In this document: positions 1 through 12,893 of the stretch, piece by piece
How the letters are laid out: each line of letters begins with the position of its first letter
How positions within the stretch are numbered: position 1 is the first letter of the stretch
Virus record (IMG/VR): IMGVR_UViG_2617270988_000017
Strand: one strand, 5' to 3'
From: a virus
Taxonomy: Duplodnaviria; Heunggongvirae; Uroviricota; Caudoviricetes
DNA length: 12,893 nucleotides
The notes under the pieces: generated by a model
Database searches by the model: none
Seen by the model: the letters and a program-made list of their open reading frames with translations, nothing else
Told to the model about the DNA's origin: nothing
Position numbers and translations under genes: made by a program

Positions 1-1461
1 ATGAAAAAATTACTGCATCTTTTTTTCCCGCTCTCGCTGCGGGTACGTTTTCTGTTAGCAACGGCAGCAGTAGTATTGGTGCTTTCGCTTGCCTACGGAA
101 TGGTTGCGCTGATCGGTTATAGCGTCAGTTTCGATAAAACCACGTTTCGGCTGTTACGTGGCGAGAGCAATCTGTTCTATACCCTTGCGAAGTGGGAAAA
201 CAATAAGTTGCATGTCGAGTTACCCGAAAATATCGACAAGCAAAGCCCCACCATGACGCTAATTTATGATGAGAACGGGCAGCTTTTATGGGCGCAACGT
301 GACGTGCCCTGGCTGATGAAGATGATCCAGCCTGACTGGCTGAAATCGAATGGTTTTCATGAAATTGAAGCGGATGTTAACGATACCAGCCTCTTGCTGA
401 GTGGAGATCATTCTATACAGCAACAGTTGCAGGAAGTGCGGGAAGATGATGACGACGCGGAGATGACCCACTCGGTGGCGGTAAACGTCTACCCGGCAAC
501 ATCGCGGATGCCAAAGTTAACCATTGTGGTGGTGGATACCATTCCGGTGGAGCTAAAAAGTTCCTATATGGTCTGGAGCTGGTTTATCTATGTGCTCTCA
601 GCCAATCTGCTGTTAGTGATCCCGCTGCTGTGGGTCGCCGCCTGGTGGAGTTTACGCCCCATCGAAGCCCTGGCAAAAGAAGTCCGCGAACTGGAAGAAC
701 ATAACCGCGAATTGCTCAATCCAGCCACAACGCGAGAACTGACCAGTCTGGTACGAAACCTGAACCGACTGTTAAAAAGTGAACGCGAACGTTACGACAA
801 ATATCGTACGACGCTCACCGACCTGACCCATAGTCTGAAAACGCCACTGGCGGTGCTGCAAAGTACGCTGCGTTCTCTGCGTAGTGAGAAGATGAGCGTC
901 AGTGATGCTGAGCCGGTAATGCTGGAGCAAATCAGCCGCATTTCACAGCAAATTGGCTACTACCTGCATCGTGCCAGTATGCGCGGCGGGACATTGCTTA
1001 GCCGCGAGCTGCATCCGGTCGCCCCACTGCTGGACAATCTCACCTCGGCGCTGAACAAAGTGTATCAACGCAAAGGGGTCAATATCTCTCTCGATATTTC
1101 GCCAGAGATCAGCTTTGTCGGTGAGCAGAACGATTTTGTCGAGGTGATGGGCAACGTGCTGGATAATGCCTGTAAATATTGCCTCGAGTTTGTCGAAATA
1201 TCTGCAAGGCAAACAGACGAGCATCTCTATATTGTGGTCGAGGATGATGGCCCCGGTATTCCCTTAAGCAAGCGAGAGGTCATTTTCGACCGTGGTCAAC
1301 GGGTTGATACTTTACGCCCTGGGCAAGGTGTAGGGCTGGCGGTAGCCCGCGAAATCACCGAGCAGTATGAGGGTAAAATCGTCGCCGGAGAGAGCATGCT
1401 GGGCGGTGCGCGGATGGAGGTGATTTTTGGTCGCCAGCATTCTGCGCCGAAAGATGAATAA
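1..1461 (+). CDS. phoQ: Sensor histidine kinase PhoQ of the PhoPQ two-component system, complete
   Basis: The 486-aa translation reads as E. coli PhoQ essentially end to end from memory (MKKLL...[15 protein letters not shown]; periplasmic acidic patch EDDDDAEM; H-box [12 protein letters not shown]; C-terminal [12 protein letters not shown]). ATG at 1, TAA at 1459-1461. Confidence 0.97.
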
Positions 1462-2262: not shown

Positions 2263-2277
2263 AACAATATCAACAAG

Positions 2278-2559
2278 TTACCGCCGTAACCGCTCCGGCT
2301 TCTTCCAGTGGTACGTAATTTTCTCCGTTTCCCGATACAGTGCCACGCGGCGATTGTAGGCCAGCATTTCAAGAACGCGGATCCGTATGTTGCGCATATC
2401 CACATCATTAAGCTGGATACCATCACGGCGCATCACCTCAGCAACAACACGCGCATAATTTTCGGCTGTCACGCTGTCCGGCTGCGTGGCCTGTTCGTCA
2501 GTCTGCTGGCTGATTCCACCAGCACGGCGGATTAATCCCAGTATTTCGGCTTCTGTCAT
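2278..2559 (-). CDS. Hypothetical protein, 93 aa
   Basis: ORF with ATG at 2559-2557 and TAA at 2280-2278. It lies just outside cos-L and reads away from it. No family recognised by eye. Confidence 0.55.
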   Translation of the reverse strand: MTEAEILGLIRRAGGISQQTDEQATQPDSVTAENYARVVAEVMRRDGIQLNDVDMRNIRIRVLEMLAYNRRVALYRETEKITYHWKKPERLRR

Positions 2560-2592
2560 TGTGCACCCATCGTTCTGATTGTCTGGTGTCGT

Positions 2593-2705
2593 CGGGTCCT
2601 TCCTGGAATTATGGACCCGTTACGGGGCGGCGACCTCGCGGTTTTTATCTGTTTATGAAAATTTTCCGGCAAAAGTCAGATCCGTTCTTCTTCTCTGTAA
2701 CAGAC
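2593..2705 (+). other. Lambda-type cos site, left copy (cos-L): cosQ-like, cosN, lambda-like cosB
   Basis: 2593-2636 reads CGGGTCCTTCCTGGAATTATGGACCCGTTACG followed by GGGCGGCGACCT, then CGCGGTTTTTATCTGTTTATGAAAATTTTCCGG...CCGTTCTTCTTC. This closely matches the lambda right-end/left-end junction as I remember it (...CGGGTCCTTTCCGGTGATCCGACAGGTTACG | GGGCGGCGACCTCGCGGGTTTTCGCTATTTATGAAAATTTTCCGG...CCGTTCTTCTTCG). The cosN 12-mer is at 2625-2636. Its packaging direction points into the 3' end of terS. Confidence 0.75.
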
Positions 2706-2723
2706 TGTTTAACAATGAAAATA

Positions 2724-2797
2724 TTAAAAAAAGAAAGGATCTGACACGAGGCATTTTAGCCAGAAAATGCCATTATCAGATCCTTTCTCATTTTTGT
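2724..2797. terminator. Bidirectional Rho-independent terminator downstream of terS
   Basis: Compound hairpin with outer stem AAAGGATCTGA (2734-2744) / TCAGATCCTTT (2776-2786) and inner stem GGCATTTT (2750-2757) / AAAATGCC (2764-2771). An A7 run at 2726-2732 gives a U-tract on the minus strand, and TTTTT at 2791-2795 gives one on the plus strand. Confidence 0.7.
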
Positions 2798-2815
2798 TCA
2801 ATAATTGCGCGTCTG

Positions 2816-3358
2816 TTACTCGCCTTTCTTCTGTAGCAACTTTTCCGGTACGTTTCCGGTTGTTTCTTTCAAGTAATCAGTCAGTATCTGTGGGAGGTTG
2901 TCGGCAACTCTGGCACTGGCATTACAGGCTTTAACCACTTCCCTTTTAAGCCTATCCAGCATGGCGGGGGTAATCTGTGGGAAGCTCCTTTGCATAGTAA
3001 GCGGGAGGCTGTCCATGATTGATGAAATCTGACTCGCCAGCTTTGAAAGCGCGTACAGGCAAAACTCAGTATCAATCACGTCACCGCGATCGCGCTCGTT
3101 TTTAAGTTCCTGCGCCTCCGCCTGTGCTGTCAGTAATCTGATCCTGACTCGTAAGAGTTCATCATCATCAATATCGCCTTTGTCGTTTGTAAGCTGGCTA
3201 ATTGCATTGTTAACCCTATTGTCTATCACGCTGGCAACATCATAAAACGCCTCACGGCCTTTACGTTCAACGGGAGTCACTCCCCACTTGTCGAACGCTG
3301 TCGCACTTACACGGCAGCTTTTCGCCATGTTTTTTTTGTTCATCAGGTGCGATTTCAT
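2816..3358 (-). CDS. Terminase small subunit, lambda Nu1 family
   Basis: The 180-aa product aligns along its length with lambda Nu1 recalled from memory: N-terminal winged-HTH region (NKKNMAKSCRVSATAFDKW vs NKKQLADIFGASIRTIQNW) and C-terminal region (LTAQAEAQELKNERDRGDVIDTEFCLYALSKLASQISSIMDSLPLTMQRSFP vs LTRAQADAQELKNARDSAEVVETAFCTFVLSRIAGEIASILDGLPLSVQRRFP). ATG at 3358-3356. Confidence 0.9.
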   Translation of the reverse strand: MKSHLMNKKNMAKSCRVSATAFDKWGVTPVERKGREAFYDVASVIDNRVNNAISQLTNDKGDIDDDELLRVRIRLLTAQAEAQELKNERDRGDVIDTEFCLYALSKLASQISSIMDSLPLTMQRSFPQITPAMLDRLKREVVKACNASARVADNLPQILTDYLKETTGNVPEKLLQKKGE

Positions 3359-3360
3359 TA

Positions 3361-3534
3361 ATACACCAACTTAATTACTGCTTCAGGTTGGTGTATTGTT
3401 TGCATCTTTCCCTTTTTATTCATAAAGATAGATCAAACAACGAAACCACCACCACCCCCCTGAAAAGGCTCATAAATAGCGAAAAACCGCTAGGTCGCCG
3501 CCCCGTAACGGGCCATAATTCCAGGAAGGACCCG
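3361..3534 (-). other. Lambda-type cos site, right copy (cos-R): cosQ-like, cosN, divergent cosB, directly upstream of terS
   Basis: 3493-3534 is the near-perfect reverse complement of 2593-2635 (42 of 43 positions, one 1-nt indel), with the cosN 12-mer AGGTCGCCGCCC at 3492-3503. On the minus strand it continues CGGTTTTTCGCTATTTATGA (lambda-like), then diverges (CAGGGGGGTGGTGGTGG) and ends in the 10-bp inverted repeat ATACACCAAC (3361-3370) / GTTGGTGTAT (3387-3396) beside the terS ATG. The cosN-cosB-terS order and orientation match lambda. Confidence 0.75.
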
Positions 3535-3535
3535 T

Positions 3536-3558
3536 AAAAAAGCCGGATTTCTCCGGCC
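3536..3558 (-). terminator. Rho-independent terminator ending the capsid operon
   Basis: Minus-strand stem GCCGGA-gaaa-TCCGGC followed by T6 (plus-strand A-run 3536-3540), 6 nt after the stop of the 137-aa ORF. Confidence 0.75.
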
Positions 3559-3563
3559 TTGTC

Positions 3564-3977
3564 TCAGATGGTTTTCAGTATGCGATCGATGTCGCCGTCA
3601 TCGCCCTGGTTTCTGCCATCGTATGCCATGCCAGCTGATACGGCTTGCGGGCTGTGCATGTCCATAAAGTTTTCAAAGGCTGCGGTAAGTTCCGGCGCAA
3701 CCTTCGGACGTTCCTGCTCTATGGTCATGCTAAGGATGCTTTTAGCCGTACCAACATCGATACAAGGCACGTTTGCCATTGCACGCAACAGCGGCTGATA
3801 GTCTTTATGCTCATGAAGCGCCATAATCGCATCAGCGCGCGGCTTGTCCTGCTCTTCCAGTTTGTTTAGTTGATATACGGCCTCATAGGTTGATAAACCT
3901 CTGTCAGCCATTGCCCGCGCTTCGACTTTAAATTTACTCGCCAGCGGTAGCGTCATGATGCTTTCATTCGTTGCCAT
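3564..3977 (-). CDS. Hypothetical protein, 137 aa, last gene of capsid operon
   Basis: ATG at 3977-3975 is preceded by a strong SD (AGGGGGAA) and follows the decoration-gene stop with a short gap. No family recognised. Inferred to be capsid-associated from context only. Confidence 0.65.
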   Translation of the reverse strand: MATNESIMTLPLASKFKVEARAMADRGLSTYEAVYQLNKLEEQDKPRADAIMALHEHKDYQPLLRAMANVPCIDVGTAKSILSMTIEQERPKVAPELTAAFENFMDMHSPQAVSAGMAYDGRNQGDDGDIDRILKTI

Positions 3978-3989
3978 CGTTCCCCCTGC

Positions 3990-4325
3990 TTATCGGGCCA
4001 GCGGCTGAACGGATACGCCGGAACCCGCAAAGGCGGCGCATTTTTTCGCATCGGTGTCGACGCTCTCAGGCCAGTTAACGGCGGCAATATTGAATATCCC
4101 CGTCTTGTAACACTGTGCTGATTTCTGCTTTGACGTGCCCACAGGGTACGAGGTCAGATAAACAGCCTTGCCAGATTCCTGACCATCCCACGGCTTAAAC
4201 TCGCCATTGTCTGCCAGCATCAGCGGGGTAAATTCCTGAATAACGCCAGCATCAGCGGCAAAATGTACCAACGTCGTGGATACCTGCTGACTGCCTGCAA
4301 ATAACTCAATGTATGGAGTGTCCAT
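3990..4325 (-). CDS. Head decoration protein, lambda gpD family
   Basis: The 111-aa product matches lambda gpD from memory ([23 protein letters not shown] vs [59 protein letters not shown] vs [36 protein letters not shown]). SD GGGGGGA upstream of the ATG at 4325. Confidence 0.85.
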   Translation of the reverse strand: [111 protein letters not shown]

Positions 4326-4337
4326 AGAATCCCCCCG

Positions 4338-5393
4338 TTAACCAATTTTGACGGTAACAAATTTGCGAATATCTGCCGGTACCGGCTGCGGTGCACTGTG
4401 TGTCTGCACGTACTCAATCGCCGGATCGCCGTCCTCAATCCAGTTTTTCGGGTAAAACATGTTTTGTGTTGCGCCCGTTCTTACCGCTTCCTGATCCATT
4501 ATCGCACCATAGGCCACCAGCCCTTTATTGTTGGTGTTACCCAGGACCAGCAAATCAGGCTCAAGGAAATATTTTTCGGTACCATCGCTGTCAGTGTATT
4601 TGCCGGAATAGACGATAAGGGCCAGATCACCAAGATAGCCTTTAAAGCTCACCACTTCGCCCAGGTTTTTACAGGCCAGTTCGGCGGCGGATTCTGAACC
4701 ACGGGAAAGATCGTACAGCTCACGGAATTTTTTAAAGCTGCCTAATGTGCGCCATACCTCAGCGCCCATAATCATGACGTTTGCGGGGCAACCAGCCTGA
4801 TCAGCATAAAGCTCGATGTCATAGATTGGGTCGTGCATGTCTTTATCCTGCTCGGACCATTTTTTACCCTTGGCCTGCTCTATGATGCAGTTTTCCGGTA
4901 TTTTCCAGTCGATTTCATAGCGTTCTATGCCTTCGCCCTCAATGATGTTTTTTCCGGTCGTTACCGCATTCACCGCCAGCCATTCCACGCGTGCCTTAAT
5001 GGCGTTTATCTGGCGGCGCATGTTGCCAGTAATCAGGCGCATACGGCGATAGGTAGGGTCGTTAAGCTGTGCCGGATCTTCTCCAGCCATGCGCATGATG
5101 GTTTTCGTTGGATCGATTTCGTGCTTTGGCTTCATGTAGCCAGGTTTGATTGTGCTGGTTTCGTACCCTTTATCGCGCTGAACCTGGCTACCCACCATAG
5201 GCGAACAAAACGCCGACATGGTGACTTCTTCAATGTCCAGGGTATCCAGCATGATGTTTTGCGTGCTGAATGTCGCCACGTTCGGGAAAAACAGCGTGGT
5301 AAACAGAGGGCTGAATTTAAAATCCGCAATATCCCCGCGATTCAGGTACATGAAAAGCTGGTTAGTGTTAAGTGCCGTTGCTTTGCCTGCCAT
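4338..5393 (-). CDS. Major capsid protein, lambda gpE family (HK97 fold)
   Basis: The 351-aa product aligns with lambda gpE over its full length by eye, at moderate identity (for example KPGYMKPKHEIDP vs TPGYVKPKHEVNP; DPTYRRMRLITGNMR vs DPAYRRRRIIMQNMR; LVLGNTNNKGLVAYGAI vs MVLGNTQARGLRTYGCI; YPKNWIEDGDPA vs YPKNWVTTGDPA). SD GGGGGTGA. The E-then-D gene order is the reverse of lambda. Confidence 0.92.
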   Translation of the reverse strand: MAGKATALNTNQLFMYLNRGDIADFKFSPLFTTLFFPNVATFSTQNIMLDTLDIEEVTMSAFCSPMVGSQVQRDKGYETSTIKPGYMKPKHEIDPTKTIMRMAGEDPAQLNDPTYRRMRLITGNMRRQINAIKARVEWLAVNAVTTGKNIIEGEGIERYEIDWKIPENCIIEQAKGKKWSEQDKDMHDPIYDIELYADQAGCPANVMIMGAEVWRTLGSFKKFRELYDLSRGSESAAELACKNLGEVVSFKGYLGDLALIVYSGKYTDSDGTEKYFLEPDLLVLGNTNNKGLVAYGAIMDQEAVRTGATQNMFYPKNWIEDGDPAIEYVQTHSAPQPVPADIRKFVTVKIG

Positions 5394-5599
5394 TATTCAC
5401 CCCCATAATTTTTATGCATCCCAAGCGCCGCAAGTAAATAAGAGCGTACAAGTGAACCTATCGACGGCTCCGGCGTCATCAGCGGATCCAGTCCAGCCGC
5501 AACGCCAGCTTCATAGTTTTTTTTGTGGCGCTGCTTGAGCACCTCCACGATTTCGGGGCTTATGTACACCGAAACACCGCCTTTTTTCTCTTCAGCCAT
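5393..5599 (-). CDS. Hypothetical protein, 68 aa, first gene of capsid operon
   Basis: In-frame ATG at 5599 (MAEEKKGG...) preceded by GAGG. Its stop overlaps the capsid-gene start (TAATG), implying translational coupling. The track's longer start at 5632 has no SD. Confidence 0.5.
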   Translation of the reverse strand: MAEEKKGGVSVYISPEIVEVLKQRHKKNYEAGVAAGLDPLMTPEPSIGSLVRSYLLAALGMHKNYGGE

Positions 5600-5649
5600 A
5601 GTAAGAAATTCCTCTTCGACTAAAAAAATCATAACTGGATGTTTATCCA

Positions 5650-5684
5650 GTCCTGATTATAATCAGAATTGCATTTTATGCAAT
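5650..5684 (-). promoter_or_regulatory. Candidate sigma70 promoter for the capsid operon, embedded in two palindromes
   Basis: Minus strand reads TTGCAT (5683-5678), a 16-nt spacer, then TATAAT (5661-5656). The -10 lies inside the perfect 14-bp palindrome CTGATTATAATCAG (5653-5666) and the -35 inside TTGCAT-ttt-ATGCAA (5669-5683). The first ORF starts about 55 nt downstream. Confidence 0.5.
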
Positions 5685-5764
5685 GATATTGAGTTATGTT
5701 GCAAATTATGAAATGATTATCCCGATCACGAACGCCAGTGCATCCAAAAACCTCATATGCAAAA

Positions 5765-5802
5765 GCCCGATAAGAACCCTCTGACCTTATCGGGCTTTTT
5801 TT
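5765..5802 (+). terminator. Rho-independent terminator, plus-strand orientation, probably bidirectional
   Basis: Stem GCCCGATAAG (5765-5774) / CTTATCGGGC (5786-5795) with a 11-nt loop, followed by T7 (5796-5802). There are four U on the minus-strand side. Confidence 0.6.
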
Positions 5803-5808
5803 GGGCGC

Positions 5809-5830
5809 AAAAAAGCCGGATTGCTCCGGC
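5809..5830 (-). terminator. Rho-independent terminator downstream of the 74-aa cassette ORF
   Basis: Minus-strand GCCGGA-gcaa-TCCGGC followed by T6. Same stem sequence as the terminators at 3536-3558 and 6172-6194. Confidence 0.7.
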
Positions 5831-5850
5831 TATGTGTGCTGTGTGCTGGC

Positions 5851-6075
5851 TCAGTCTCTGATCTCTTTCAGAAATTCTATCAATGCATCTATCTGTTCAG
5901 GATTTACCGCCAGCATTTCACCGGATAGAGCACATCTCACAAAACCATGCTGATCCTTTTCAATCAGTGCGCCCGTCTCCAGGAATGCGCGGTAATCATT
6001 GATGCTCATCGTCTCCATGTTGTCAGCATGGTATTTATCACGCTGTTTTAATATCTCATCAAATTTCATCGGCAT
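5851..6075 (-). CDS. Hypothetical protein, 74 aa, terminator-insulated single-gene cassette (moron-like)
   Basis: ATG at 6075 with SD AGAGGAA about 10 nt upstream. Intrinsic terminators lie both upstream (6172-6194) and downstream (5809-5830, 5765-5802). No family recognised. Confidence 0.6.
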   Translation of the reverse strand: MPMKFDEILKQRDKYHADNMETMSINDYRAFLETGALIEKDQHGFVRCALSGEMLAVNPEQIDALIEFLKEIRD

Positions 6076-6171
6076 TGTTTTTTTCCTCTGTTGTGTCTGT
6101 TTGTTTCAGATAGTAACTATGCCTGACCGTGACGAAAACCCGGTAATGCGCCATACCGTTTCAACTGGTGC

Positions 6172-6194
6172 AAAAAAAGCCGGATTTCTCCGGC
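6172..6194 (-). terminator. Rho-independent terminator ending the replication/regulatory operon
   Basis: Minus-strand GCCGGA-gaaa-TCCGGC followed by T7 (plus-strand A-run 6172-6178), 8 nt after the perC-like stop. Confidence 0.75.
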
Positions 6195-6201
6195 TGTTTG
6201 A

Positions 6202-6474
6202 TTAGCTGTCCTGGTAATTGCGCCATATTTCATCACCAGCACCATCTATACCCATTTCGGCATAAGTGCGATCGACTGCCTTTTTCAGGTCTCCGAAATT
6301 ATCCGGCGGCTCCGGTGCCCTCTGTGCCTTCCTTGAACATTCCAGCCGTCGCATCGTGATGTGATGCCGTTCCTTGTCTGTCTCCACCAGCTGCATGACT
6401 TCACCCCATCGCGCCGCCGCCCTCCGGTAAAAGCCTTTCGCCTCCAGTTCCTCCGCTATGCGGTCATGTACCAT
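6202..6474 (-). CDS. PerC-family transcriptional activator-like protein, 90 aa
   Basis: Start MVHDRIAEELEAKGFYRRAAARWGEVM carries the PerC/Pch-type N-terminal motif as I recall it. ATG at 6474 has a strong SD (GAGGGGGTGA). The track's longer version overlaps ssb and is rejected. Confidence 0.65.
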   Translation of the reverse strand: MVHDRIAEELEAKGFYRRAAARWGEVMQLVETDKERHHITMRRLECSRKAQRAPEPPDNFGDLKKAVDRTYAEMGIDGAGDEIWRNYQDS

Positions 6475-6484
6475 CGTCACCCCC

Positions 6485-6895
6485 TCAGAACGAAATATCA
6501 TCACCGTAAGAGTCATCGCCTCCCGCTGGTGGCTGATTACCCTGTGTGCCTGTGGTTTTGCGTCTGTTCCCGCCTGGACGTGCCGCGCGGGCACTGATTA
6601 CGCTGTCTGCGATAACCTGCCAGCCCTGCCGCGTTTCTCCGTTCTGTCCGGTCCACTGGCTTACCTGCATCGTGCCGGATACGCTGGCAACATCGCCTTT
6701 TTGATGTTTAGCCAGGAAGTCGGCCTGTTTGCCAAATGCGATGACCGATAACCATAACGTCGCCTGTCCGTCCTGTGCCTGGCTGCATGGCAAAGATACC
6801 GCCATACGCGCCAGCGTCATCGGTGTGCCCTTGCTGGTCTGTTTTACCTGCGGGTCGTCCACCAGCCGCCCGTAAGCGGCTATCTGTGCCGTCAT
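6485..6895 (-). CDS. ssb: Single-stranded DNA-binding protein
   Basis: 136 aa with an OB-fold-like N-terminal region, a Gly/Pro/Gln-rich linker (GTQGNQPPAGGDDSYG) and an acidic C-terminal tip DDISF resembling the SSB DDDIPF tail. The start overlaps the upstream stop (ATGA). Confidence 0.85.
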   Translation of the reverse strand: MTAQIAAYGRLVDDPQVKQTSKGTPMTLARMAVSLPCSQAQDGQATLWLSVIAFGKQADFLAKHQKGDVASVSGTMQVSQWTGQNGETRQGWQVIADSVISARAARPGGNRRKTTGTQGNQPPAGGDDSYGDDISF

Positions 6896-7143
6896 AATTC
6901 CACCTCTCCGGTTTTAACGTTGATGGTTGTTACCTGTTCCGCTTCGGCAATCTCCCGTTCTGTCAGCGTGGCAAAGTTTGCCGCCGCCGTGGTCATGAAT
7001 GCGCTTATCAGGTCGGGATGTTCCTTCGCGTATCCTTCCCGCGTGTGGCGGTCTATCGTTCTGATTGCCACCTTTAAGGTGTGCTCAGTCATGTCTAACG
7101 CTTTATATTTTGGCTCTGTTCTGTCTCTGCGTTTTTGGGTCAT
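6892..7143 (-). CDS. Hypothetical protein, 83 aa, translationally coupled to ssb
   Basis: In-frame ATG at 7143 (MTQKRRDR...) with SD GAGAGG. The track start at 7173 is GTG and sits in the iteron array. The stop overlaps the ssb start. Confidence 0.5.
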   Translation of the reverse strand: MTQKRRDRTEPKYKALDMTEHTLKVAIRTIDRHTREGYAKEHPDLISAFMTTAAANFATLTEREIAEAEQVTTINVKTGEVEL

Positions 7144-7152
7144 TTCTCGCAA

Positions 7153-7348
7153 CCTCTCACTTTTTCGCCTCACTTTTTCAAGCGTCTCACTTCGTCGCAG
7201 TTGGGATTTTCGGTTTTTCTATGTGTGTGTTTCATAAGTATTTTTTTACCCCTCACTTTTGAGGATGTATACAGGTCGAAAAGTGAGGGAGAGCGGGCTA
7301 ATTTTGGCCCTCTTTCTATCCCCCTCGCTTTTGCTCCTCACTTTTATA
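7153..7348. repeat. Iteron array, putative origin of replication of the element
   Basis: CTCACTTTT-type repeats at 7156-7165, 7169-7178, 7186-7192, 7252-7260, 7278-7289 (inverted), 7323-7333 (variant CTCGCTTTT) and 7336-7347, plus an AT-rich stretch at 7230-7248. It lies immediately 3' of the rep gene, as is typical of satellite and plasmid origins. Confidence 0.55.
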
Positions 7349-8743
7349 GCGGCGCTACATCATCCCCATCGATACGAATAACCCCATCTTTTTCCAGCTT
7401 GTACAGCCAGCGCCGGAAGTTTTTCATTTCATACCCCAGCTTTTTCATGTCATCACGTAACAGCGGGATCGTGCACTTGTCGCCGTTCTGTGTGCGTGAA
7501 CGGATGCACCCCCATAGCGCGGTATGGTTTTCCGTCTTGTTCCCTGCCTCCTCGATGCGCTCCAGTTCAACAGGAGGGCGCGGATCATCCACCACCACCA
7601 GCGACGTGATTAATTCACCGTCAGCGTCGGTAAAAAGCTCCACCACGCGTAAGTCATATGCGGCTTCTTTGAGTTCCTCCGCGTCCTTCATTTTGGTGCA
7701 TGAGATAACCAGCGCTTCGCTTCCTGCGTCCTCCCTGCGTATCCGGTATTCAGCATCCAGCGAAGCACGAAATGCACTGGAACCGCGCGCGCCTTTCGTC
7801 TCATCCTTGCCGGAATGGTGAACCACCAGCACCGTGGCCCCTGTGCGTCGTTTCAGTTCGTCACAACCACGGATAAACGCCCCATATCACGGGAATCATT
7901 TTCATCATTCCCACCAAAGCAACGCGCCAGCGTATCCAGAATAATCATGCGTACAGGTTTACCCGTTTCCCGCTCCACCTGACGGGCAGCGATAACCATT
8001 TCATCAACATCAAGCGGGGCAGCCGGAAAGATGGGGCGGTTTACCAGATACAGATTTTTCACCTGCTCATCGTGCACAACCTCCCAGGCTTTTACACGAC
8101 GCGGAACACCTATACCGCCTTCACCAACCACATAGAGAACCGCACCATGTGCAACCCTGCGGCCTCCCCACTGGCGACCAGTGGCAACATGGCACGCCCA
8201 CGATCCGGCAAGGAATGATTTATAGGACCCGCTAGCCCCGTATATGCTGCATAGCGATACCGCCGGAATAATCCCCTTAACCACGTAATCCAGTTGCGTG
8301 TCGTATCCGGTAGATCCAACGCTCATCGGTAGCGTGGTTTTTCGCTGGTGGTTTTTTTCTTCCGCCGGCTCTTTCCCGCGCACCCGTTCCAGGTATTCGC
8401 GCCAGTTCTCCCGCATATGGCTGTGCATCCCTTCGGGGTAATAATTCGCATCAGTTACACCCGCCGCCGCCAGCTTGTGCGCAATGGCATTAATATTTGA
8501 TGGCCTGATGTGGCCTGCCTTGTACAGCCGGACACAATAGCGCCCCTCGTCGATGATTCTCAGGTCTGCCAGTTCATCCAGTTGATCATCAGCCAGCACA
8601 ACGGGAGGCACATTATCGCCAGCCAGTCGCCCGTCCTGTTCCTGCCACTGTTTCGCATGTGCCCAGGCATCACTACCCGCAAAAATAATGACTTCGGTCA
8701 TCTTGTCGTAAGGCTGTTTTTTTAAGTTCGGTGCGCTTTTCAT
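7344..8743 (-). pseudogene. Replication protein (primase/helicase-like, RepA-type P-loop ATPase with C-terminal winged-helix-like tail); reading frame interrupted near 7880
   Basis: The N-terminal ORF (8743..7853) has a Walker-A-like GASGSYKS and ILDTLARCFGG. The C-terminal ORF (7832..7344) continues in another frame with VVHHSGKDETKGARGSSAFRASLD, typical of RepA/AAA_25-like ATPases. The total span is 1400 nt, not a multiple of 3. The frames join if the G4 run (plus-strand CCCC 7880-7883) is G5, giving ...DSRDMGAFIRGCDELKRRTGATVLVVHH... Confidence 0.7.
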
Positions 8744-9039
8744 TTCTTGCCCCTGAATCCGTTAACCATGGTTTTCAGCTTCTGGATGTTTGCCCGTGCC
8801 CTGGCGTTGCTGGTGGGCACGTTATGCGGCGCGGTCTGTACCAGAGAAAAATCACGCCGGAACTGATAAACAGGCATCACGCAATCATATTCGTAACCTT
8901 CACGGCGGTAAGTTACGCACCGTCCCGCCACGCCCTTAATCATTACCGTGCCGCCGTACTGGTCGCGGTAAATATCACCGCGCGTAAATTTAGGGTGAGT
9001 GTTGCCACTGGCAGTTAAGCCAGAATATTTAAGTTTCAT
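8740..9039 (-). CDS. Hypothetical basic protein, 99 aa
   Basis: ATG at 9039 with GGAG upstream. The stop overlaps the rep start (ATGA). No family recognised. Confidence 0.55.
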   Translation of the reverse strand: MKLKYSGLTASGNTHPKFTRGDIYRDQYGGTVMIKGVAGRCVTYRREGYEYDCVMPVYQFRRDFSLVQTAPHNVPTSNARARANIQKLKTMVNGFRGKK

Positions 9040-9044
9040 TATTT

Positions 9045-9278
9045 TTATTCTCCGGTGTGCTGTTCGTTATATCTGTCGTGCAATGTCTCTATTTCCTGCA
9101 ACTCATTTATTACAGGCTCAAGAAGCGTTATTAATGCCGTGACAATTCTTGATTTTTGTTTGTCGCGTTCATTGTCGCCAAGTGTTTCAAGCCATATGCG
9201 CAATATTTCGTACATACCTTCAGCGTAAGCAAGGGCACTAAATGCGCGGTCTATTGTTTCGTGGTAAATATCACGCAT
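9045..9278 (-). CDS. Hypothetical small acidic protein, 77 aa
   Basis: ATG at 9278 with SD GGGGA. Net acidic and helical-looking. Tightly packed with neighbours (1-5 nt gaps). Confidence 0.55.
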   Translation of the reverse strand: MRDIYHETIDRAFSALAYAEGMYEILRIWLETLGDNERDKQKSRIVTALITLLEPVINELQEIETLHDRYNEQHTGE

Positions 9279-9279
9279 A

Positions 9280-9501
9280 TTAATCCCCGTCCGTTGTTTT
9301 TCTTAAAACAGCTTCTGTCACGAAATCAGCATAGTTAGCGGCAATATCAAGAATATTTAGCCCTGTATCTCTGTGCTCATCAGTGCAAAGAAAGAAAAAA
9401 GCCACCCGCATAATTTCAGATATTGACGAAAGCGCATCAGCCGCATCATCAGGAACGCCGGAAAATTCTTGTTTCAGGGAATTAAAACGATCATCACGCA
9501 T
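9280..9501 (-). CDS. Hypothetical small acidic protein, 73 aa
   Basis: ATG at 9501-9499 (MRDDRFNSLKQEFSGVPDDAADAL...). The track's longer N-terminus is rejected. It shares a PD-AADAL motif with the upstream 73-aa ORF. Confidence 0.55.
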   Translation of the reverse strand: MRDDRFNSLKQEFSGVPDDAADALSSISEIMRVAFFFLCTDEHRDTGLNILDIAANYADFVTEAVLRKTTDGD

Positions 9502-9715
9502 AACCCCCCCCATTTTCACAATCAGCAACAAGAATATTTTTAGCGTCATTCAGCGACCGCGTTGCGATGTATCGGATACATTCCAGGGCGAACTGTGTCC
9601 GGTCTTTCTGTTCTTCTCCCTGCGCAAGCTCTGCAGTGCATTCAATATCGATAAGCGCGTGCATCAGCGTAGTGAGCGCGTCGGCTGCTGCGTCCGGTGT
9701 GGTTTTATTGCACAT
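9494..9715 (-). CDS. Hypothetical small acidic protein, 73 aa
   Basis: ATG at 9715-9713 (MCNKTTPDAAADAL...) preceded by a strong SD (AGGAGGTG). It ends in NGGGYA encoded by a G8 run and overlaps the next start. Confidence 0.6.
   Translation of the reverse strand: MCNKTTPDAAADALTTLMHALIDIECTAELAQGEEQKDRTQFALECIRYIATRSLNDAKNILVADCENGGGYA
9504..9511. repeat. C8/G8 homopolymer at a gene junction
   Basis: Eight consecutive C on the plus strand (G on the coding strand). It encodes the GGG tail of the upstream ORF and lies 2 nt before the ATG of the downstream ORF. Confidence 0.9.
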
Positions 9716-9896
9716 GGCACACCTCCTGACGAATACGGGCGGCGAATACAGCAACACAACCGGACGGGCAACGGCTACGCGCTTCGCGTTCCGTCCAGGC
9801 GGTTACGTGGATGATTTGATGTTCTGACGCGCCAAAGATGATAAAGCGCCAGAGAAAGGCGGTTTGAGAATGTACAAGGGTAGGGATAGTAGCCAT
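9705..9896 (-). CDS. Small protein, 63 aa; possibly Icd-like (host cell division inhibitor family), tentative
   Basis: ATG at 9896 with SD GAGGAGG 8 nt upstream, TAA at 9707-9705. The WRF and FAARIRQ motifs resemble what I recall of Icd-like small proteins from P4-like islands, but this is unverified. A diverged tandem copy lies 369 bp upstream. Confidence 0.5.
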   Translation of the reverse strand: MATIPTLVHSQTAFLWRFIIFGASEHQIIHVTAWTEREARSRCPSGCVAVFAARIRQEVCHVQ

Positions 9897-10056
9897 GTTG
9901 GCAGCCTCCTCAGTGTGGTTAAGATAACCGCCACCGGAAACGCCAATTTCGCTGGTGGCGGACTGTACAGGGTTGGCGTAACCGGACACTGAAGAAACCG
10001 GCGCGGATTGCTCCGCCCCCGTACAGCCCACCATTGATAAGGTGTGACTATGCGGC

Positions 10057-10082
10057 ACAAAAAAACACGCGGGGCGCGTGTT
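10057..10082 (-). terminator. Strong Rho-independent terminator signature inside the upstream tandem copy
   Basis: Minus strand reads AACACGCG-CCC-CGCGTGTT followed by TTTTTTT (plus-strand A7 at 10059-10065). It is GC-rich with an uninterrupted U-tract. Confidence 0.65.
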
Positions 10083-10265
10083 ATGCGCTTCAGTTTTGCC
10101 CAGGACGCCAATCCCGGCACCCGTTTTATGAGGTGCGCGGGAATCATAGCTATTTTCGACACTGGCGATCAACTGGTTTTTTTCTCCGATATTCAGGGCC
10201 AGAAAACGCCACACAAAGGCCGTTTGTGTGTGTACAAGGTGTGGTATATGATTTACGGCAACCAT
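10083..10265 (-). pseudogene. Degenerate tandem paralogue of the 63-aa ORF (or translated leader); no in-frame stop before the terminator
   Basis: ATG at 10265 with SD AGGAG. The first 30 or so codons are homologous to the downstream ORF (PHLVHTQTAFVWRFLAL vs PTLVHSQTAFLWRFIIF) with synonymous and conservative changes. The frame then runs through the terminator without a stop, and a C-terminal-like motif (RVFLCRI vs AVFAARI) appears only in another frame. Confidence 0.35.
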
Positions 10266-10293
10266 AACGGCTCCTAGTTTACGTTGTTGGTTA

Positions 10294-10328
10294 GACGCCC
10301 CGTATGTGTTCCCAGCACTGCGGGGCGT
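10294..10328. promoter_or_regulatory. 8-bp inverted repeat ACGCCCCG / CGGGGCGT with a 19-bp spacer in the divergent control region
   Basis: Arms at 10294-10301 and 10321-10328, in the 5' leader of the minus-strand small-ORF operon and upstream of the RHH promoter. Confidence 0.4.
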
Positions 10329-10353
10329 TGATTTTTGTGTAATGGCAAGTACA

Positions 10354-10395
10354 ATGGTAATTACCATGTAGGTATAGTAATGAAGGGTAATTACC
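10354..10395. promoter_or_regulatory. Two GGTAATTACC operator-like palindromes at the RHH gene promoter
   Basis: Perfect 14-bp palindrome ATGGTAATTACCAT at 10354-10367 and GGTAATTACC at 10386-10395, centres 30 bp apart. The second abuts the RHH ATG. A TATAGT -10-like hexamer is at 10373-10378. Confidence 0.6.
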
Positions 10396-10569
10396 ATGTC
10401 AACACCATTAGAAAAACGTTCGCCTCCATACCAAATGCGATTACCGGAAGACTTCAGAGCGCAGCTAGAAGAAGCAGCTAAGGCCGATGGCGACACATCT
10501 TTAGCCACTTGGATTAAACGCGTTCTCCGCAAAGAATTACAGCAACGCGGCATAGAACCCAAAGGATAA
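10396..10569 (+). CDS. Ribbon-helix-helix (Arc/CopG-like) DNA-binding protein, 57 aa
   Basis: ATG at 10396, TAA at 10567-10569. The product MSTPLEKRSPPYQMRLPEDFRAQLEEAAKADGDTSLATWIKRVLRKEL has the typical RHH pattern (beta-strand YQMRLP, then two helices). It is absent from the ORF track because it is under 60 aa. Confidence 0.7.
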   Translation: MSTPLEKRSPPYQMRLPEDFRAQLEEAAKADGDTSLATWIKRVLRKELQQRGIEPKG

Positions 10570-10611
10570 AAACTATCAGCGCCGTGGTGTGAGGTATTAC
10601 GGCGCATTGCT

Positions 10612-10800
10612 ATGCAGGACAACACAATGACCGATAAAGAATTGACCAAAACATTATCACCGGCACGGAAAAGACGGCGCAGAAAGATAGAGCATGAATC
10701 AGAAAGATTCGCGCCATGTGCTTTTGCCCTTGAGCAATTCCTTAAAGAGTACAGGGAAAAGCGCTCATTGCAGGTATGGCAACGAACTGAACCAGACTGA
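10612..10800 (+). CDS. Hypothetical small basic protein, 62 aa, downstream of the RHH gene
   Basis: ATG at 10612 (alternative ATG at 10627 with AGGA upstream). It contains an ARKRRRRK basic patch. The coding call is weak. Confidence 0.4.
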   Translation: MQDNTMTDKELTKTLSPARKRRRRKIEHESERFAPCAFALEQFLKEYREKRSLQVWQRTEPD

Positions 10801-10894
10801 TTGCATTGCCCACCAGCCTGATAGCGGCTATCATCCCCGTGCTTATGTTTGGGATCACATACACATAAGGCGCAGCGGGTTAATTGTTCAGAAA

Positions 10895-10922
10895 GGCGGC
10901 TCCATATCGGGGCCGCTTTTTT
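10895..10922 (+). terminator. Rho-independent terminator between convergent alpA and the RHH operon
   Basis: Stem GGCGGCTCC (10895-10903) / GGGGCCGC (10909-10916) followed by T6 (10917-10922). Confidence 0.65.
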
Positions 10923-10948
10923 CGTGTTTGTCATATCTGTGATACCCG

Positions 10949-11155
10949 TTAAGCAGCCGTTCCGCGTGCTTCCTCTTCGCGTTCTTTCTGCCAGGACAAC
11001 ACATCATCCTCATACCATCCGCGACGGCGTAAACCAACGCGAAAACCCTGCGGAAATTCTCCGGCGTTGATCATGCTTTGCAGCGTGCTGTCTGCCTTGA
11101 TGTGGATAATTTTTTTTACTTCCTGGCGAAAGATAATTTTTCTGATTGCTTCCAT
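10949..11155 (-). CDS. alpA: AlpA-family phage transcriptional regulator / excisionase-like protein
   Basis: The 68-aa product matches the AlpA pattern (IIHIKADSTLQSMINAGEFPQGFRVGLRRRGWYEDDVLSWQ vs CP4-57 AlpA ...TGMARATIYDWLNPKSPRYDATFPKKRMLGVKSVGWIEAEIDEWL). ATG at 11155. Confidence 0.8.
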   Translation of the reverse strand: MEAIRKIIFRQEVKKIIHIKADSTLQSMINAGEFPQGFRVGLRRRGWYEDDVLSWQKEREEEARGTAA

Positions 11156-11288
11156 CGTGATTTACCTTGTGAATCCGGTGTATTCCGGTGACAAATACGG
11201 TAAATCATCGGATATGGGTAAAAACAGTTCCCACCGTTTTTAAACGGTATACACCGTTTTTTATATTGATGATTTGAAATGGAATTAT

Positions 11289-11311
11289 AAAAAAAGCGGC
11301 ATTTCTGCCGC
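11289..11311 (-). terminator. Rho-independent terminator after the int-proximal small ORF
   Basis: Minus-strand stem GCGGCA-gaaa-TGCCGC followed by T7 (plus-strand A-run 11289-11295). Confidence 0.7.
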
Positions 11312-11322
11312 TTCCAGGATTG

Positions 11323-11574
11323 TTACCGCCATTTTTTGGGCCTGCCTCCGATCTTCATAGATGCCGGACGTACGACCTTATCAATACTTACCGCCAGATT
11401 TCTGGAAGCGCCACGGGATACCAGAAAATCTACTACCTGTTTTTTTGATGGGGCCGTCGTTCTGTCCTCCGGATCGTAGGTTGACCAAAATTCATGCTGA
11501 ACCATCAGGGCCAGTTGCAGCCCGTCGCAATTGCATCTGATATTTTTTTGCATCTTAACGGTTTCATGTTTCAC
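11323..11574 (-). CDS. Hypothetical small basic protein adjacent to integrase, start uncertain
   Basis: The track start at 11574 is GTG. The first in-frame ATG is at 11553 and lacks a clear SD. The basic C-terminus reads IGGRPKKWR. No family recognised. Confidence 0.45.
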   Translation of the reverse strand: MKHETVKMQKNIRCNCDGLQLALMVQHEFWSTYDPEDRTTAPSKKQVVDFLVSRGASRNLAVSIDKVVRPASMKIGGRPKKWR

Positions 11575-11651
11575 GGCCTTGTCGTTAAATTTGATGCAAT
11601 TATACGACGGTTTTACATGGTTTTCGTAGTTTTTACTGGTTTTCTGTACAG

Positions 11652-12893
11652 CTACACGGCTCGGATACCCCTTTTACCACTGGCGAGGGTTACGCCCGTC
11701 GCCGCAGCCTCGACAAATTCGCCCCACCAGCGCATCAGCACGATGCGTTTTTCTATGTAGTTGCTCCGGTTGTATGCCCGTCTAACTTCGTTGGTGTCGA
11801 CGTGGGCAAGTGCCGCCTCTATTACGTCCGGCTCGAATCCTTCCTCGTTCGCTGCTGTGCTGAATATGGCGCGTAATCCATGAGACACCAGCACGCCAGC
11901 GAATCCCATACGCCGCAATGCTGCGTTAGCTGTCTGGCTGTTCATCGGCTGCTGTGGGTCTTTCAGACTTGGGAAAACGTAATTGCGGTGGTGGCTGATT
12001 GGTTTCATGGCCTCCAGCACCGCCATAGCCTGACCGGAAAGCGGGATAACGTGATCCCTGCGCATCTTCATGCGTCCGGCAGGTATCGTCCATTGCTTCG
12101 CGTCCAGGTTGATTTCATCCCACCGCGTTGATGACGCTTCGGCGGGACGGGTTACGGTCAGTAACTGCCATTCAATCAGTAATCTGGTCTGCCGTTCTGT
12201 TGCCGATACTGATAAAGCCTGCATAAGCTCGGGCAGCTGTTCGGGGCGGATTGTTGGCATATGTTTTTTTACAGGTGAGGGAAACGCCTTACGCACATTC
12301 ATAGCCGGATTGGCATCAATCAGCCCACTGTTGGCGGCGTAATCCATTACCTCATTAACGCGCTGTAAAACCCGCTTGAGTGTTTCCAGGTTGCCGCGCT
12401 CCTTGATGGGGGTAAGCACTTCAACGAACCTTCGGGCGGTGAGGGTATCTATTGGCGTGTTGCCGATGAACGGGAATACATATTTATCCAGCGAACGCCA
12501 GATGTCTTTAATCGTGTTGGGGGCCAGATTCTGGCTGATTTTCACCTGGTACCATGCCGCCGCCACATTTTCGAACGTGTTCCCTTGTCTTCGGGCCTCT
12601 GTCTCTCTTTTTTGCCTCTCGTGGTCCTGCGGGTCAGTTCCGGCACTGATTAACGTCCTGTACTCGCTACGGCGTTTTCTGGCATCAGCCAGGGAAACAT
12701 CTTCAAGCGATCCAAAACTCAGCAATATTCTTTTTTTGTCCGATGGTCGGTAGTAGGAAAATCTCCAGAGTTTTGATCCAGACGGTTTGACCAGGAGAAA
12801 AAGCCCTCCGCCGTCCTGCAGGGTGTACTCCTTTTGCGCTGGTCTGGCTGCTTTGATCTGCACTGTGGTTAATGGGTGTGTTTTTCTCGCCAT
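11652..12893 (-). CDS. int: Site-specific tyrosine integrase, P4 family
   Basis: 413 aa with an N-terminal arm-binding-type region (KEYTLQDGGGLFLLVKPSGSKLWRFSYY) and a C-terminal catalytic domain (HGLRAIFST...RAYNRSNY). The ATG is at the last three bases of the window, so the upstream region and att site are outside it. Confidence 0.95.
   Translation of the reverse strand: MARKTHPLTTVQIKAARPAQKEYTLQDGGGLFLLVKPSGSKLWRFSYYRPSDKKRILLSFGSLEDVSLADARKRRSEYRTLISAGTDPQDHERQKRETEARRQGNTFENVAAAWYQVKISQNLAPNTIKDIWRSLDKYVFPFIGNTPIDTLTARRFVEVLTPIKERGNLETLKRVLQRVNEVMDYAANSGLIDANPAMNVRKAFPSPVKKHMPTIRPEQLPELMQALSVSATERQTRLLIEWQLLTVTRPAEASSTRWDEINLDAKQWTIPAGRMKMRRDHVIPLSGQAMAVLEAMKPISHHRNYVFPSLKDPQQPMNSQTANAALRRMGFAGVLVSHGLRAIFSTAANEEGFEPDVIEAALAHVDTNEVRRAYNRSNYIEKRIVLMRWWGEFVEAAATGVTLASGKRGIRAV

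Follow-up and report, generated by a model that had tools for sequence, protein, structure and literature searches.

A predicted ribbon-helix-helix repressor cassette at the leftward promoter of an EcCICFT073-type phage-inducible chromosomal island

The 12,893-nucleotide stretch of viral DNA in IMG/VR record IMGVR_UViG_2617270988_000017 (the whole of which is called the window here) holds an integrated satellite, which its gene set and its place at the phoQ/roxA site assign to the EcCICFT073 type of phage-inducible chromosomal islands (PICIs). Within it, on the strand opposite to most of the island, lies a short gene for a 57-aa protein, probably of the ribbon-helix-helix (RHH) fold, whose start is interlaced with two palindromic candidate operators and with P_L, the predicted promoter of the leftward operon. 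From this arrangement and its conservation across genera, we consider it fairly likely that the RHH protein is an operator-binding repressor of P_L, and the locus layout makes it the best candidate for the repressor thought to be missing from Gram-negative PICIs. These islands have been described as “transcribed unidirectionally,” with the nature of a global repressor left unclear; uncontrolled PICI replication harms the host, and yet no repressor was known in Gram-negative PICIs (PMC6092414). Searches of the literature turned up no paper on a regulator of the RHH or Arc kind in PICIs or in satellites.

Results

In the 12.9-kb window there are exactly two occurrences of the palindrome GGTAATTACC, one at 10356-10365 and one at 10386-10395, which bears out the two palindromes 30 bp apart that a first-pass annotation of this DNA had proposed as the operators of a repressor. 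The two copies, spaced 30 bp start to start, compare with a chance expectation of 0.26, and two or more matches were obtained in 4 of 200 shuffles. The repeat extends past the palindrome itself, as ATGGTAATTACCATGT and AGGGTAATTACCATGT, with GGTAATTACCATGT as the repeated unit. The predicted proximal operator (10386..10395, within an extended repeat at 10384-10399) adjoins the ATG of the RHH gene at 10396 and lies in the spacer of P_L; the predicted distal operator is the perfect 14-bp palindrome ATGGTAATTACCAT (10354..10367) and extends over the predicted starts of P_L and also of P_rhh, the promoter assigned to the RHH gene. Both sites are neutral as to strand.

The same arrangement recurs in a comparison set of 60 loci drawn from different species in many gammaproteobacterial genera, in nearly all of which a 10-14-bp palindrome is present twice, at about -41 and at about -10 relative to the start codon. 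The sequence of the site changes along with that of the protein. Where the predicted DNA-reading beta-strand is of the S[PS][QP][YF]QMRL type, the proximal site at -10 from the ATG is GGTAATTACC in 20 of 21 unique upstream sequences (22, minus one with a wrong call of the RHH start), and in the other beta-strand types it is TGTAATTACA, GGCGTATACC or TGTAATTGAC instead. Set out by predicted strand, SP[QP][YF]QMRL goes with the operator GGTAATTACC, TDQYQ[IL]RL with TGTAATTACA, PQFPMRL with GGTATATACC and NPPFQFRL with TGTGTAATTACACA, and at least four or five such specificity classes can be distinguished. At closer range, in two Escherichia coli loci that are about 80% identical to the window over this region (L002 and L003), both operators are invariant, whereas the sequence separating and flanking them differs. 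When 2.9 million viral contigs were scanned for pairs of GGTAATTACC spaced 15-30 bp apart, 27 sites were returned; 22 of them adjoin the start of an RHH gene and lie in satellite-sized contigs, and five are unrelated repeats. No helper-phage target of the RHH protein was found among these paired sites, and since they occur only at RHH loci and in unrelated repeats, nothing in the scan indicates one. The comparisons support the view that the two palindromes behave as RHH operators, and the co-variation of the operator with residues of the predicted strand suggests that an RHH dimer would bind them through its paired strands.

The predicted operators sit on what appears to be the main promoter of the leftward operon. 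P_L (10374..10402, minus strand) is the best sigma-70 match of the region, agreeing at 10 of 12 positions, with a -35 element TTGACA at 10402..10397, a 17-bp spacer and a -10 element TACTAT at 10379..10374. Its -35 element falls inside codons 1-3 of the RHH gene (ATG TCA A..), the spacer contains the proximal operator, and the predicted start, near 10366, lies within the distal operator. The idea that the palindromes control the promoter of the minus-strand operon holds up as a reading of the sequence; the earlier picture in which the RHH promoter merely faces that promoter does not, P_L being embedded in the start of the RHH gene. Of 47 unique upstream sequences, 41 have a perfect TTGACA at the P_L position, and in 40 of these 41 there is also a -10 element matching at four or more of six positions at a distance of 16-18 bp. 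Every one of the 45 unique genes spells Ser2 as TCA, whereas three and five different codons serve at two other conserved serine positions and six at a conserved leucine. The invariance of TCA and TTGACA points to selection on the DNA and not on the protein, and on this pattern P_L is under nucleotide-level selection.

The RHH operon would itself be read from a weaker promoter, P_rhh (10328..10355, plus strand; TTGATT-16-TACAAT), whose -10 element abuts the distal operator and whose start also falls within it. A TA(C/T/A)AAT element directly to the left of the distal operator is kept in loci of the GGTAATTACC type. As P_L and P_rhh are opposed and overlap, RNA polymerase could occupy only one of them at once.

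These conserved bases admit a different explanation, under which the RHH protein acts on its own promoter only, or as a roadblock to read-through from alpA, the TTGACA and -10 elements being an extension of the operator or a translation signal. Two points fit it: ATGT is common to both operator copies, and the leftward promoter is read from the sequence alone. However, the CAA past ATGT is invariant at the proximal copy and absent at the distal one, the -10 element at 16-18 bp accompanies TTGACA in all but one of the 41 cases, and in related modules of the YlcI/YnfO type (see below) the equivalent promoter lies outside the coding region. We accordingly regard an action confined to the RHH gene's own promoter, or a roadblock, as quite improbable, and favor repression of P_L.

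The RHH gene (10396..10569, plus strand) was absent from the list of open reading frames (ORFs) on which the first-pass annotation drew, and the proposal that a 57-aa gene is nevertheless present proved right. Compared with L002 and L003, 25 of its 174 positions differ, 24 of them at codon position 3; 24 of the 25 differences are synonymous, leaving one amino-acid change, whereas the same 25 differences make eight amino-acid changes in the 409-aa ORF that runs antisense to it (9705..10934). By this pattern of substitution, 10396..10569 is a coding gene. The further assertion that it is the only confident plus-strand gene was mistaken, for the element has other plus-strand features, of which orf57 (see below) is also coding. 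In the O26 and O157 genomes, the Prokaryotic Genome Annotation Pipeline (PGAP) leaves the RHH gene unannotated and calls an 'Icd-like pseudogene' on the opposite strand (10419..10934); in diverged relatives, it annotates the plus-strand genes. It could be argued from these calls, and from a minus frame that stays open for 1230 nt, that the real gene is on the minus strand, be it the 409-aa ORF or the shorter PGAP feature, and that the plus-strand ORFs arise by chance. This is scarcely credible in view of the eight residues altered there against one in the plus frame, the confinement of the Pfam and NCBIfam matches of the minus frame to the part left of 10148, and the plus-strand genes that PGAP places in diverged relatives. 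Third codon positions common to two frames are a known cause of long shadow ORFs, and the 409-aa frame, which shares them with the sense gene, is such a shadow; its substitution pattern rules it and the 'Icd-like pseudogene' out as real genes. Farther left, the Pfam Phage_ASH match on the minus strand (within 9867-10148) coincides exactly with the isrK and C4 RNA genes. The protein annotations at 9867-10148 and 10419-10934 thus appear to shadow RNA genes and an unannotated gene.

The assignment of the product to the Arc-like RHH proteins, also made in the first-pass annotation, is backed by both a profile match and the predicted fold. The PHROG 228 family 'Arc-like repressor' matches residues 6-55 with an E-value of 1.5e-6. 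In an AlphaFold2 (AF2) model with a predicted local distance difference test (pLDDT) score of 74, residues 1-17 are extended and are followed by helices at 18-31 and 36-50, which is the strand-helix-helix topology of this fold, the strand being one that cannot form in a monomer model. The top Foldseek matches in the PDB are nearly all RHH proteins, namely Arc, CopA_SO, ORF56, NikR, ParD, MazE9 and AtaR, with TM-scores of 0.5-0.62 and each with an E-value greater than 1. The Pfam Arc model is matched by 19 of 44 relatives, with a best E-value of 1.5e-4. Sequence and profile searches of solved structures returned only designed helical repeats and AmrZ (E = 1). As the curated Pfam and NCBIfam cut-offs are not reached by the window protein, we describe it as probably an Arc-like RHH protein of an uncurated family; by its curated cut-off, it is not a member of the YlcI/YnfO family (NF041551).

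The homologues, all 56-58 aa long, form 93 clusters at 90% identity, spread over Enterobacterales, Pasteurellales, Aeromonadales and Orbales; at 50% identity, they reduce to only 36 representatives among 1.84 billion proteins. The family is almost absent from a collection of phage genomes, in which four records match, none of them named P4. A fragment that includes an RHH gene of the NPPFQFRL type with its operators, and in addition the terminator hairpin and an 86-aa first leftward ORF, also occurs on a Klebsiella pneumoniae IncR plasmid (L099; NZ_CP089007.1, 34075-34738) and about 100 other plasmids, where it sits between IS26 and IS903B on resistance plasmids.

Across genera, the gene order is primase/helicase, Icd-like gene, RHH gene, AlpA gene and integrase, and in most genera the first gene to the left of the RHH gene is an Icd-like ORF, followed by small ORFs and a primase or helicase. 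Downstream of P_L in the window come, in this order, a conserved hairpin, a Shine-Dalgarno sequence (AGGAG) and the ATG at 10267 of a 187-aa ORF (9705..10267, minus strand), which consists of an Icd-like 5' part, an 'Ash' region and an Icd-like C-terminus and has matches to Pfam Phage_ASH and the NCBIfam Icd-like family. This ORF spans two RNA genes on its own strand, an arrangement like that of P4 Eta. One is a member of the isrK family (10060..10136; Rfam RF01394, 66 bits against a gathering threshold of 50), a relative of P4 seqA, with a promoter-like site of its own (10172..10143) and a terminator (10082..10064, minus strand). The other belongs to the C4 antisense RNA family (9951..10038; RF01695, 77.6 bits against a threshold of 45), which includes relatives of P4 CI and P1 C4. 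With both RNAs above the Rfam gathering thresholds and in the leader of the early operon, the region next to the RHH gene, as distinct from the RHH gene itself, has the features of P4/P1-type RNA immunity. The 5' end of icd is duplicated here, as a 46-nt direct repeat of 76% identity (9843-9888 and 10203-10248), which suggests that an isrK-C4-icd cassette was inserted behind an older icd start.

Between P_L and the leader ORF, the plus strand is predicted to give rise to a cis-antisense small RNA of about 80 nt (10259..10341). It would start from the promoter-like site TTGTGT-17-TATGAT (10224-10252, plus strand; TATGAT at 10247-10252) and end at a hairpin (10296-10331) followed by a U-tract, which is kept in about 45 loci with compensatory changes. 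This hairpin folds better on the plus strand, with -18.9 kcal/mol and 13 consensus pairs, than on the minus strand, with -12.9 kcal/mol and 10 consensus pairs, and its wobble pairs are found on the plus strand only. This asymmetry favors a plus-strand terminator over a leader hairpin of the leftward RNA, an interpretation we dropped for that reason, and by its pairing pattern the hairpin is an intrinsic terminator of a plus-strand RNA. As a target of C4, it was likewise rejected, as no complementarity was visible by eye and the hairpin is also present in loci without C4. In 29 of 47 loci, a -10-like hexamer keeps a constant position, separated by 8-9 nt from the complement of the leader ORF start codon, and the amino acids encoded opposite it vary. 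An Rfam search with the predicted RNA gave no match. The RNA is predicted to cover the start codon and the Shine-Dalgarno sequence of the first leftward gene.

In related E. coli islands (L002, L003 and L004), the stretch from alpA to the Icd-like gene holds plus-strand modules, from one to three in tandem, each with an RHH gene and a small ORF, and many of these RHH genes are annotated as YlcI/YnfO. Every module has palindromes of its own, GTGTTNAACAC, GGTGTATTTCACC or GGTGTGGCCCAC. In each, a leftward promoter bears an operator within its spacer and a second one where transcription would start, and copies of the terminator hairpin and of the 5' end of icd precede the module. The model element EcCICFT073 has such a module, a YlcI/YnfO gene with orf57, read in the direction opposite to the remaining island, with a promoter (TTGACG-18-TATAGT) directed at its Icd-like gene; its orf57 is 99% identical in DNA sequence to that of the window. 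The YlcI/YnfO proteins, known as small prophage proteins, are like the window RHH protein in length, in a collinear strand-helix-helix pattern and in their position in E. coli PICIs, and their modules have the same layout of promoter and operators; they differ from it in their operators and in their N- and C-termini. An hhalign comparison of the two types is collinear and weak (E 0.009, probability 4%). In one locus (L008), two RHH genes stand next to each other. The tandem modules suggest an exchange of cassettes and a stacking of specificities.

Such arrays raise the question of whether the RHH protein mainly silences incoming related PICIs of the same operator type, instead of setting how the resident element responds to a helper, with tandem copies stacking several immunities. 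The four or five specificity classes, at the least, and the one to three modules with different operators in related E. coli PICIs are both typical of heteroimmune repressor systems. Exclusion of this kind would use the same molecular mechanism as repression of the resident operon and is compatible with it, and every module retains a P_L directed into the resident operon; as the main role of the protein, inter-satellite immunity seems to us unlikely, and we continue to place the repression of the resident P_L first.

Downstream of the RHH gene and in the same operon lies orf57 (10627..10800, plus strand), a small basic protein gene that was noted earlier as a 62-aa ORF from 10612; PGAP and the homologues indicate that translation probably begins at the second ATG (10627), for a product of 57 aa. 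It is under coding constraint, with dN/dS values of 0.10-0.50 over 15 pairs and indels that stay in frame. The protein evolves fast around a conserved ERFAPCAFALEQFLKEY core and matches PHROG 21027, a family of unknown function; no Pfam, NCBIfam or PADLOC match was found. Its distribution is limited to E. coli and Shigella, and it pairs there with RHH genes of either of two families, whereas beyond E. coli the RHH gene has no such companion and ends in a terminator. The suggestion that the downstream ORF is a partner of the RHH protein therefore cannot be upheld in the sense of an obligate one, and we do not take orf57 to be that partner.

This distribution also bears on a reading of the locus as a toxin-antitoxin or accessory cassette, in which the RHH protein is an autoregulating antitoxin and the small protein a toxin or defense effector, with no control over the satellite operon. 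The order of an RHH gene and a small ORF under palindromic operators does resemble type II toxin-antitoxin loci, many of the Foldseek matches are RHH antitoxins (ParD, CopA, AtaR and MazE9), and 'HicB family antitoxin' is among the database names of homologues. However, no ORF follows the RHH gene in most genera, orf57 pairs with more than one RHH family and has no toxin or PADLOC match, the 57-aa RHH protein has no toxin-binding tail, and the conserved leftward promoter would go unexplained. With a partner that is not conserved and no toxin or defense matches, we set the toxin-antitoxin reading aside as having only a slim chance of being correct. If, as we prefer, the RHH protein is a repressor, then the co-expression of orf57 with a lysogeny-type repressor makes an accessory role for it, in exclusion or interference, as likely as a regulatory one.

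Between the two genes, a hairpin at 10579..10605 (GCGCCGTGGTG...TTACGGCGC; plus strand, -17.7 kcal/mol, z -1.8) is near-identical in all E. coli modules, whatever their RHH family or orf57 variant, and no U-tract follows it; it may be an attenuator, may stabilize the RNA or may mark a recombination joint. The operon is predicted to end at an intrinsic terminator (10890..10922, plus strand) with a 14-bp stem and a T-run (-21.7 kcal/mol, z -4.0), which faces the 3' end of alpA. A promoter-like site TTGCCC-17-TATCAT on the plus strand, downstream of orf57 in the 10806-10922 region, lies about 55 nt 5' of the terminator hairpin and about 85 nt ahead of the terminator end. It is kept in L004 and replaced in CFT073, and it may serve another small RNA converging on alpA.

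The remainder of the window gives the setting of this locus. It begins with phoQ (1..1461), and everything beyond is satellite, on the minus strand apart from the RHH-orf57 region. The integrase gene (11652..12893, minus strand) is followed leftward by a small ORF and an alpA-like gene (10949..11155, both minus strand), the latter convergent with the RHH operon. Its product matches a PHROG excisionase/regulator family (E 2.5e-6) and, below the cut-off, Pfam Phage_AlpA (E 0.0028), and it is labeled by PGAP as an AlpA-family or helix-turn-helix regulator. Leftward beyond the RHH gene come the Icd-like and other small ORFs and genes for a RepA-type helicase, single-stranded DNA-binding protein, PerC, capsid, head-decoration protein and small terminase; capsid (c1499) and decoration (c1500) genes have been described in EcCICFT073 (PMC6092414). 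The window is a mosaic in which 2266-9559 is about 98% identical to the island at phoQ/roxA of O157:H7 TW14359 and 6909-12893, including the integrase, about 97% identical to the island at tRNA-Pro of O26:H11 11368. The helicase gene (7344..8743, minus strand) has a 1-base deletion in a C-run near 7880 relative to the intact genes of both these islands, and the frameshift splits it into ORFs of 296 aa and 162 aa, which may reflect a replication-defective island or a sequencing error. Upstream of alpA lie the tandem 20-nt repeats AAACAGTTCCCACCGTTTTT and AAACGGTATACACCGTTTTT (11222-11261), to which a copy in inverted orientation at 11176-11195 is related; they may be sites at which a regulator acts on the alpA promoter. 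No AlpA boxes common to that promoter and the RHH region were found.

Discussion

The direction of P_L, into the Icd-like/replication operon, suggests that the RHH protein most likely represses both P_L and its own promoter. In the mechanism we propose, RHH dimers would bind the two operators 30 bp apart, the proximal one filling the 17-bp spacer of P_L and the distal one covering the starts of P_L and P_rhh. From these positions, bound RHH protein would shut P_L and limit its own synthesis, so that the replication operon would be off and the level of repressor steady. Should that level drop, the stronger P_L would win and transcribe the Icd-like leader ORF and the replication operon, and because the two promoters overlap face to face, it would occlude P_rhh, giving a bistable switch of the immunity type. 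Control of the operon would then be layered, with the RHH switch outermost, the predicted antisense RNA acting on the ribosome site of the leader, and the isrK and C4 RNAs inside the leader ORF. How the switch might be flipped is a matter for speculation: one conceivable route is AlpA-dependent transcription converging on the RHH operon, and another is an anti-repressor supplied by the helper. The earlier suggestion that the element is kept silent until helper infection is likewise conjecture. Relief by the SOS response, which had been entertained at first, is unlikely, in that a protein of 57 aa has no room for an SOS-cleavable domain, and in EcCICFT073 the induction of alpA is helper-dependent and SOS-independent (PMC6092414).

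Several known systems offer parallels to this arrangement. The immI region of phage P22 has two RHH repressors, Mnt and Arc, with overlapping promoters, Pant and Pmnt, and an antisense RNA, sar; it is the subject of papers by Sauer (1983) and Vershon (1985, 1987), which are among the references of PMC2629481. As in immI, the window has a small RHH repressor candidate transcribed away from the promoter it would control, a proposed autoregulation, operators between the -35 and -10 elements and at the start site, opposed and overlapping promoters that would give a switch, and a short antisense RNA, here a predicted counterpart of sar, over the ribosome site of the first controlled gene; as far as sequence can tell, the layouts agree. 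They differ in what is controlled, which is an antirepressor in P22 and, in the window, an operon that starts with an Icd-like/Ash-like ORF and continues with replication genes. They also differ in the operators, the window having two palindromes of 10-14 bp set 30 bp apart for one 57-aa protein, whereas Arc and Mnt each have a single operator, of 21 bp and 17 bp. Unlike in immI, the -35 element of the window lies within the start codon region of the repressor's own gene; moreover, the host element is a satellite and not a phage, and beyond the fold there is no detectable sequence relationship.

In the pathogenicity islands of Staphylococcus aureus (SaPIs) and other Gram-positive PICIs, Stl (Rpr) takes the same position as the window RHH gene, that of a small regulator by int and opposite in direction to the replication operon, and for both the proposed role is to keep the island silent (PMC6092414). 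The resemblance is one of layout, the RHH gene lying beside int/alpA and divergent from the replication operon. Stl is a larger helix-turn-helix protein, lifted by the binding of a helper protein, whereas the 57-aa RHH protein has no obvious sensor domain; and the known inducer of the Gram-negative elements is an activator, AlpA, unlike in the Stl system. A third parallel is with satellite P4, whose immunity involves P_LE, seqA, the CI RNA, eta and Vis. There, the eta ORF encloses seqA and the CI immunity RNA, a self-terminating immunity transcript is made from an internal promoter that is constitutive, and transcripts that come from an upstream promoter and are translated read through (PMC10111431). 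The window likewise has a seqA-like isrK RNA and a CI-like C4 RNA in a long leader ORF downstream of an AlpA/Vis homologue, and by analogy P_L may be an upstream promoter that, if its transcript is translated, could override the RNA immunity as P_LL does in P4. The differences are that P4 is without an RHH gene and that its upstream promoter precedes vis and is activated by the helper, whereas that of the window comes after alpA and would be gated by the RHH protein.

A number of observations weigh against the picture of an RHH-governed switch. The related loci are not independent samples, and DNA binding and repression are both deduced from sequence. On the side of the protein, the Foldseek E-values are all above 1, and the window protein scores 14.3 bits against the Pfam Arc cut-off of 20.4 and 18.7 bits against the NCBIfam YlcI/YnfO cut-off of 30. 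On the side of the promoters, P_rhh is weak, and no clear counterpart is recognizable in loci of the TGTAATTACA type. The isrK/C4 immunity, with a promoter of its own after P_L, implies that repression of the operon does not depend on the RHH protein alone. Finally, overexpression of AlpA by itself induces EcCICFT073, in which AlpA is an activator (PMC6092414); as AlpA alone suffices, control by the RHH protein may not be dominant. A 'master' role for it in the element is, in our estimate, slightly on the doubtful side; AlpA, the isrK and C4 RNAs and the predicted antisense RNA would also act at this locus.

More generally, we tentatively propose, as an idea that is on balance doubtful, that RHH cassettes are the missing immunity repressors of Gram-negative PICIs and P4-like satellites, that they come in exchangeable types which can be stacked in tandem for immunity of satellite against satellite, and that the helper defeats the switch by AlpA-driven convergent transcription or by an anti-repressor. 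As predicted here, such a cassette would comprise the repressor, its two operators, the promoter of the replication operon in or beside the start of the repressor gene, and the antisense RNA. The gene at its center has been missed or mis-annotated across hundreds of E. coli genomes. The mechanism would be that of a classical RHH switch, and what makes it of interest is where it sits, namely on the main promoter of Gram-negative PICIs, the model element included. A repressor gene on the opposite strand, set on the operon promoter, would be a concrete and quickly testable answer to how these islands are kept silent, and it would point to the obstacle facing a helper phage. PICIs could be sorted into immunity groups by these specificity classes, and controlled induction is what PICI-based 'drones' and diagnostics depend on.

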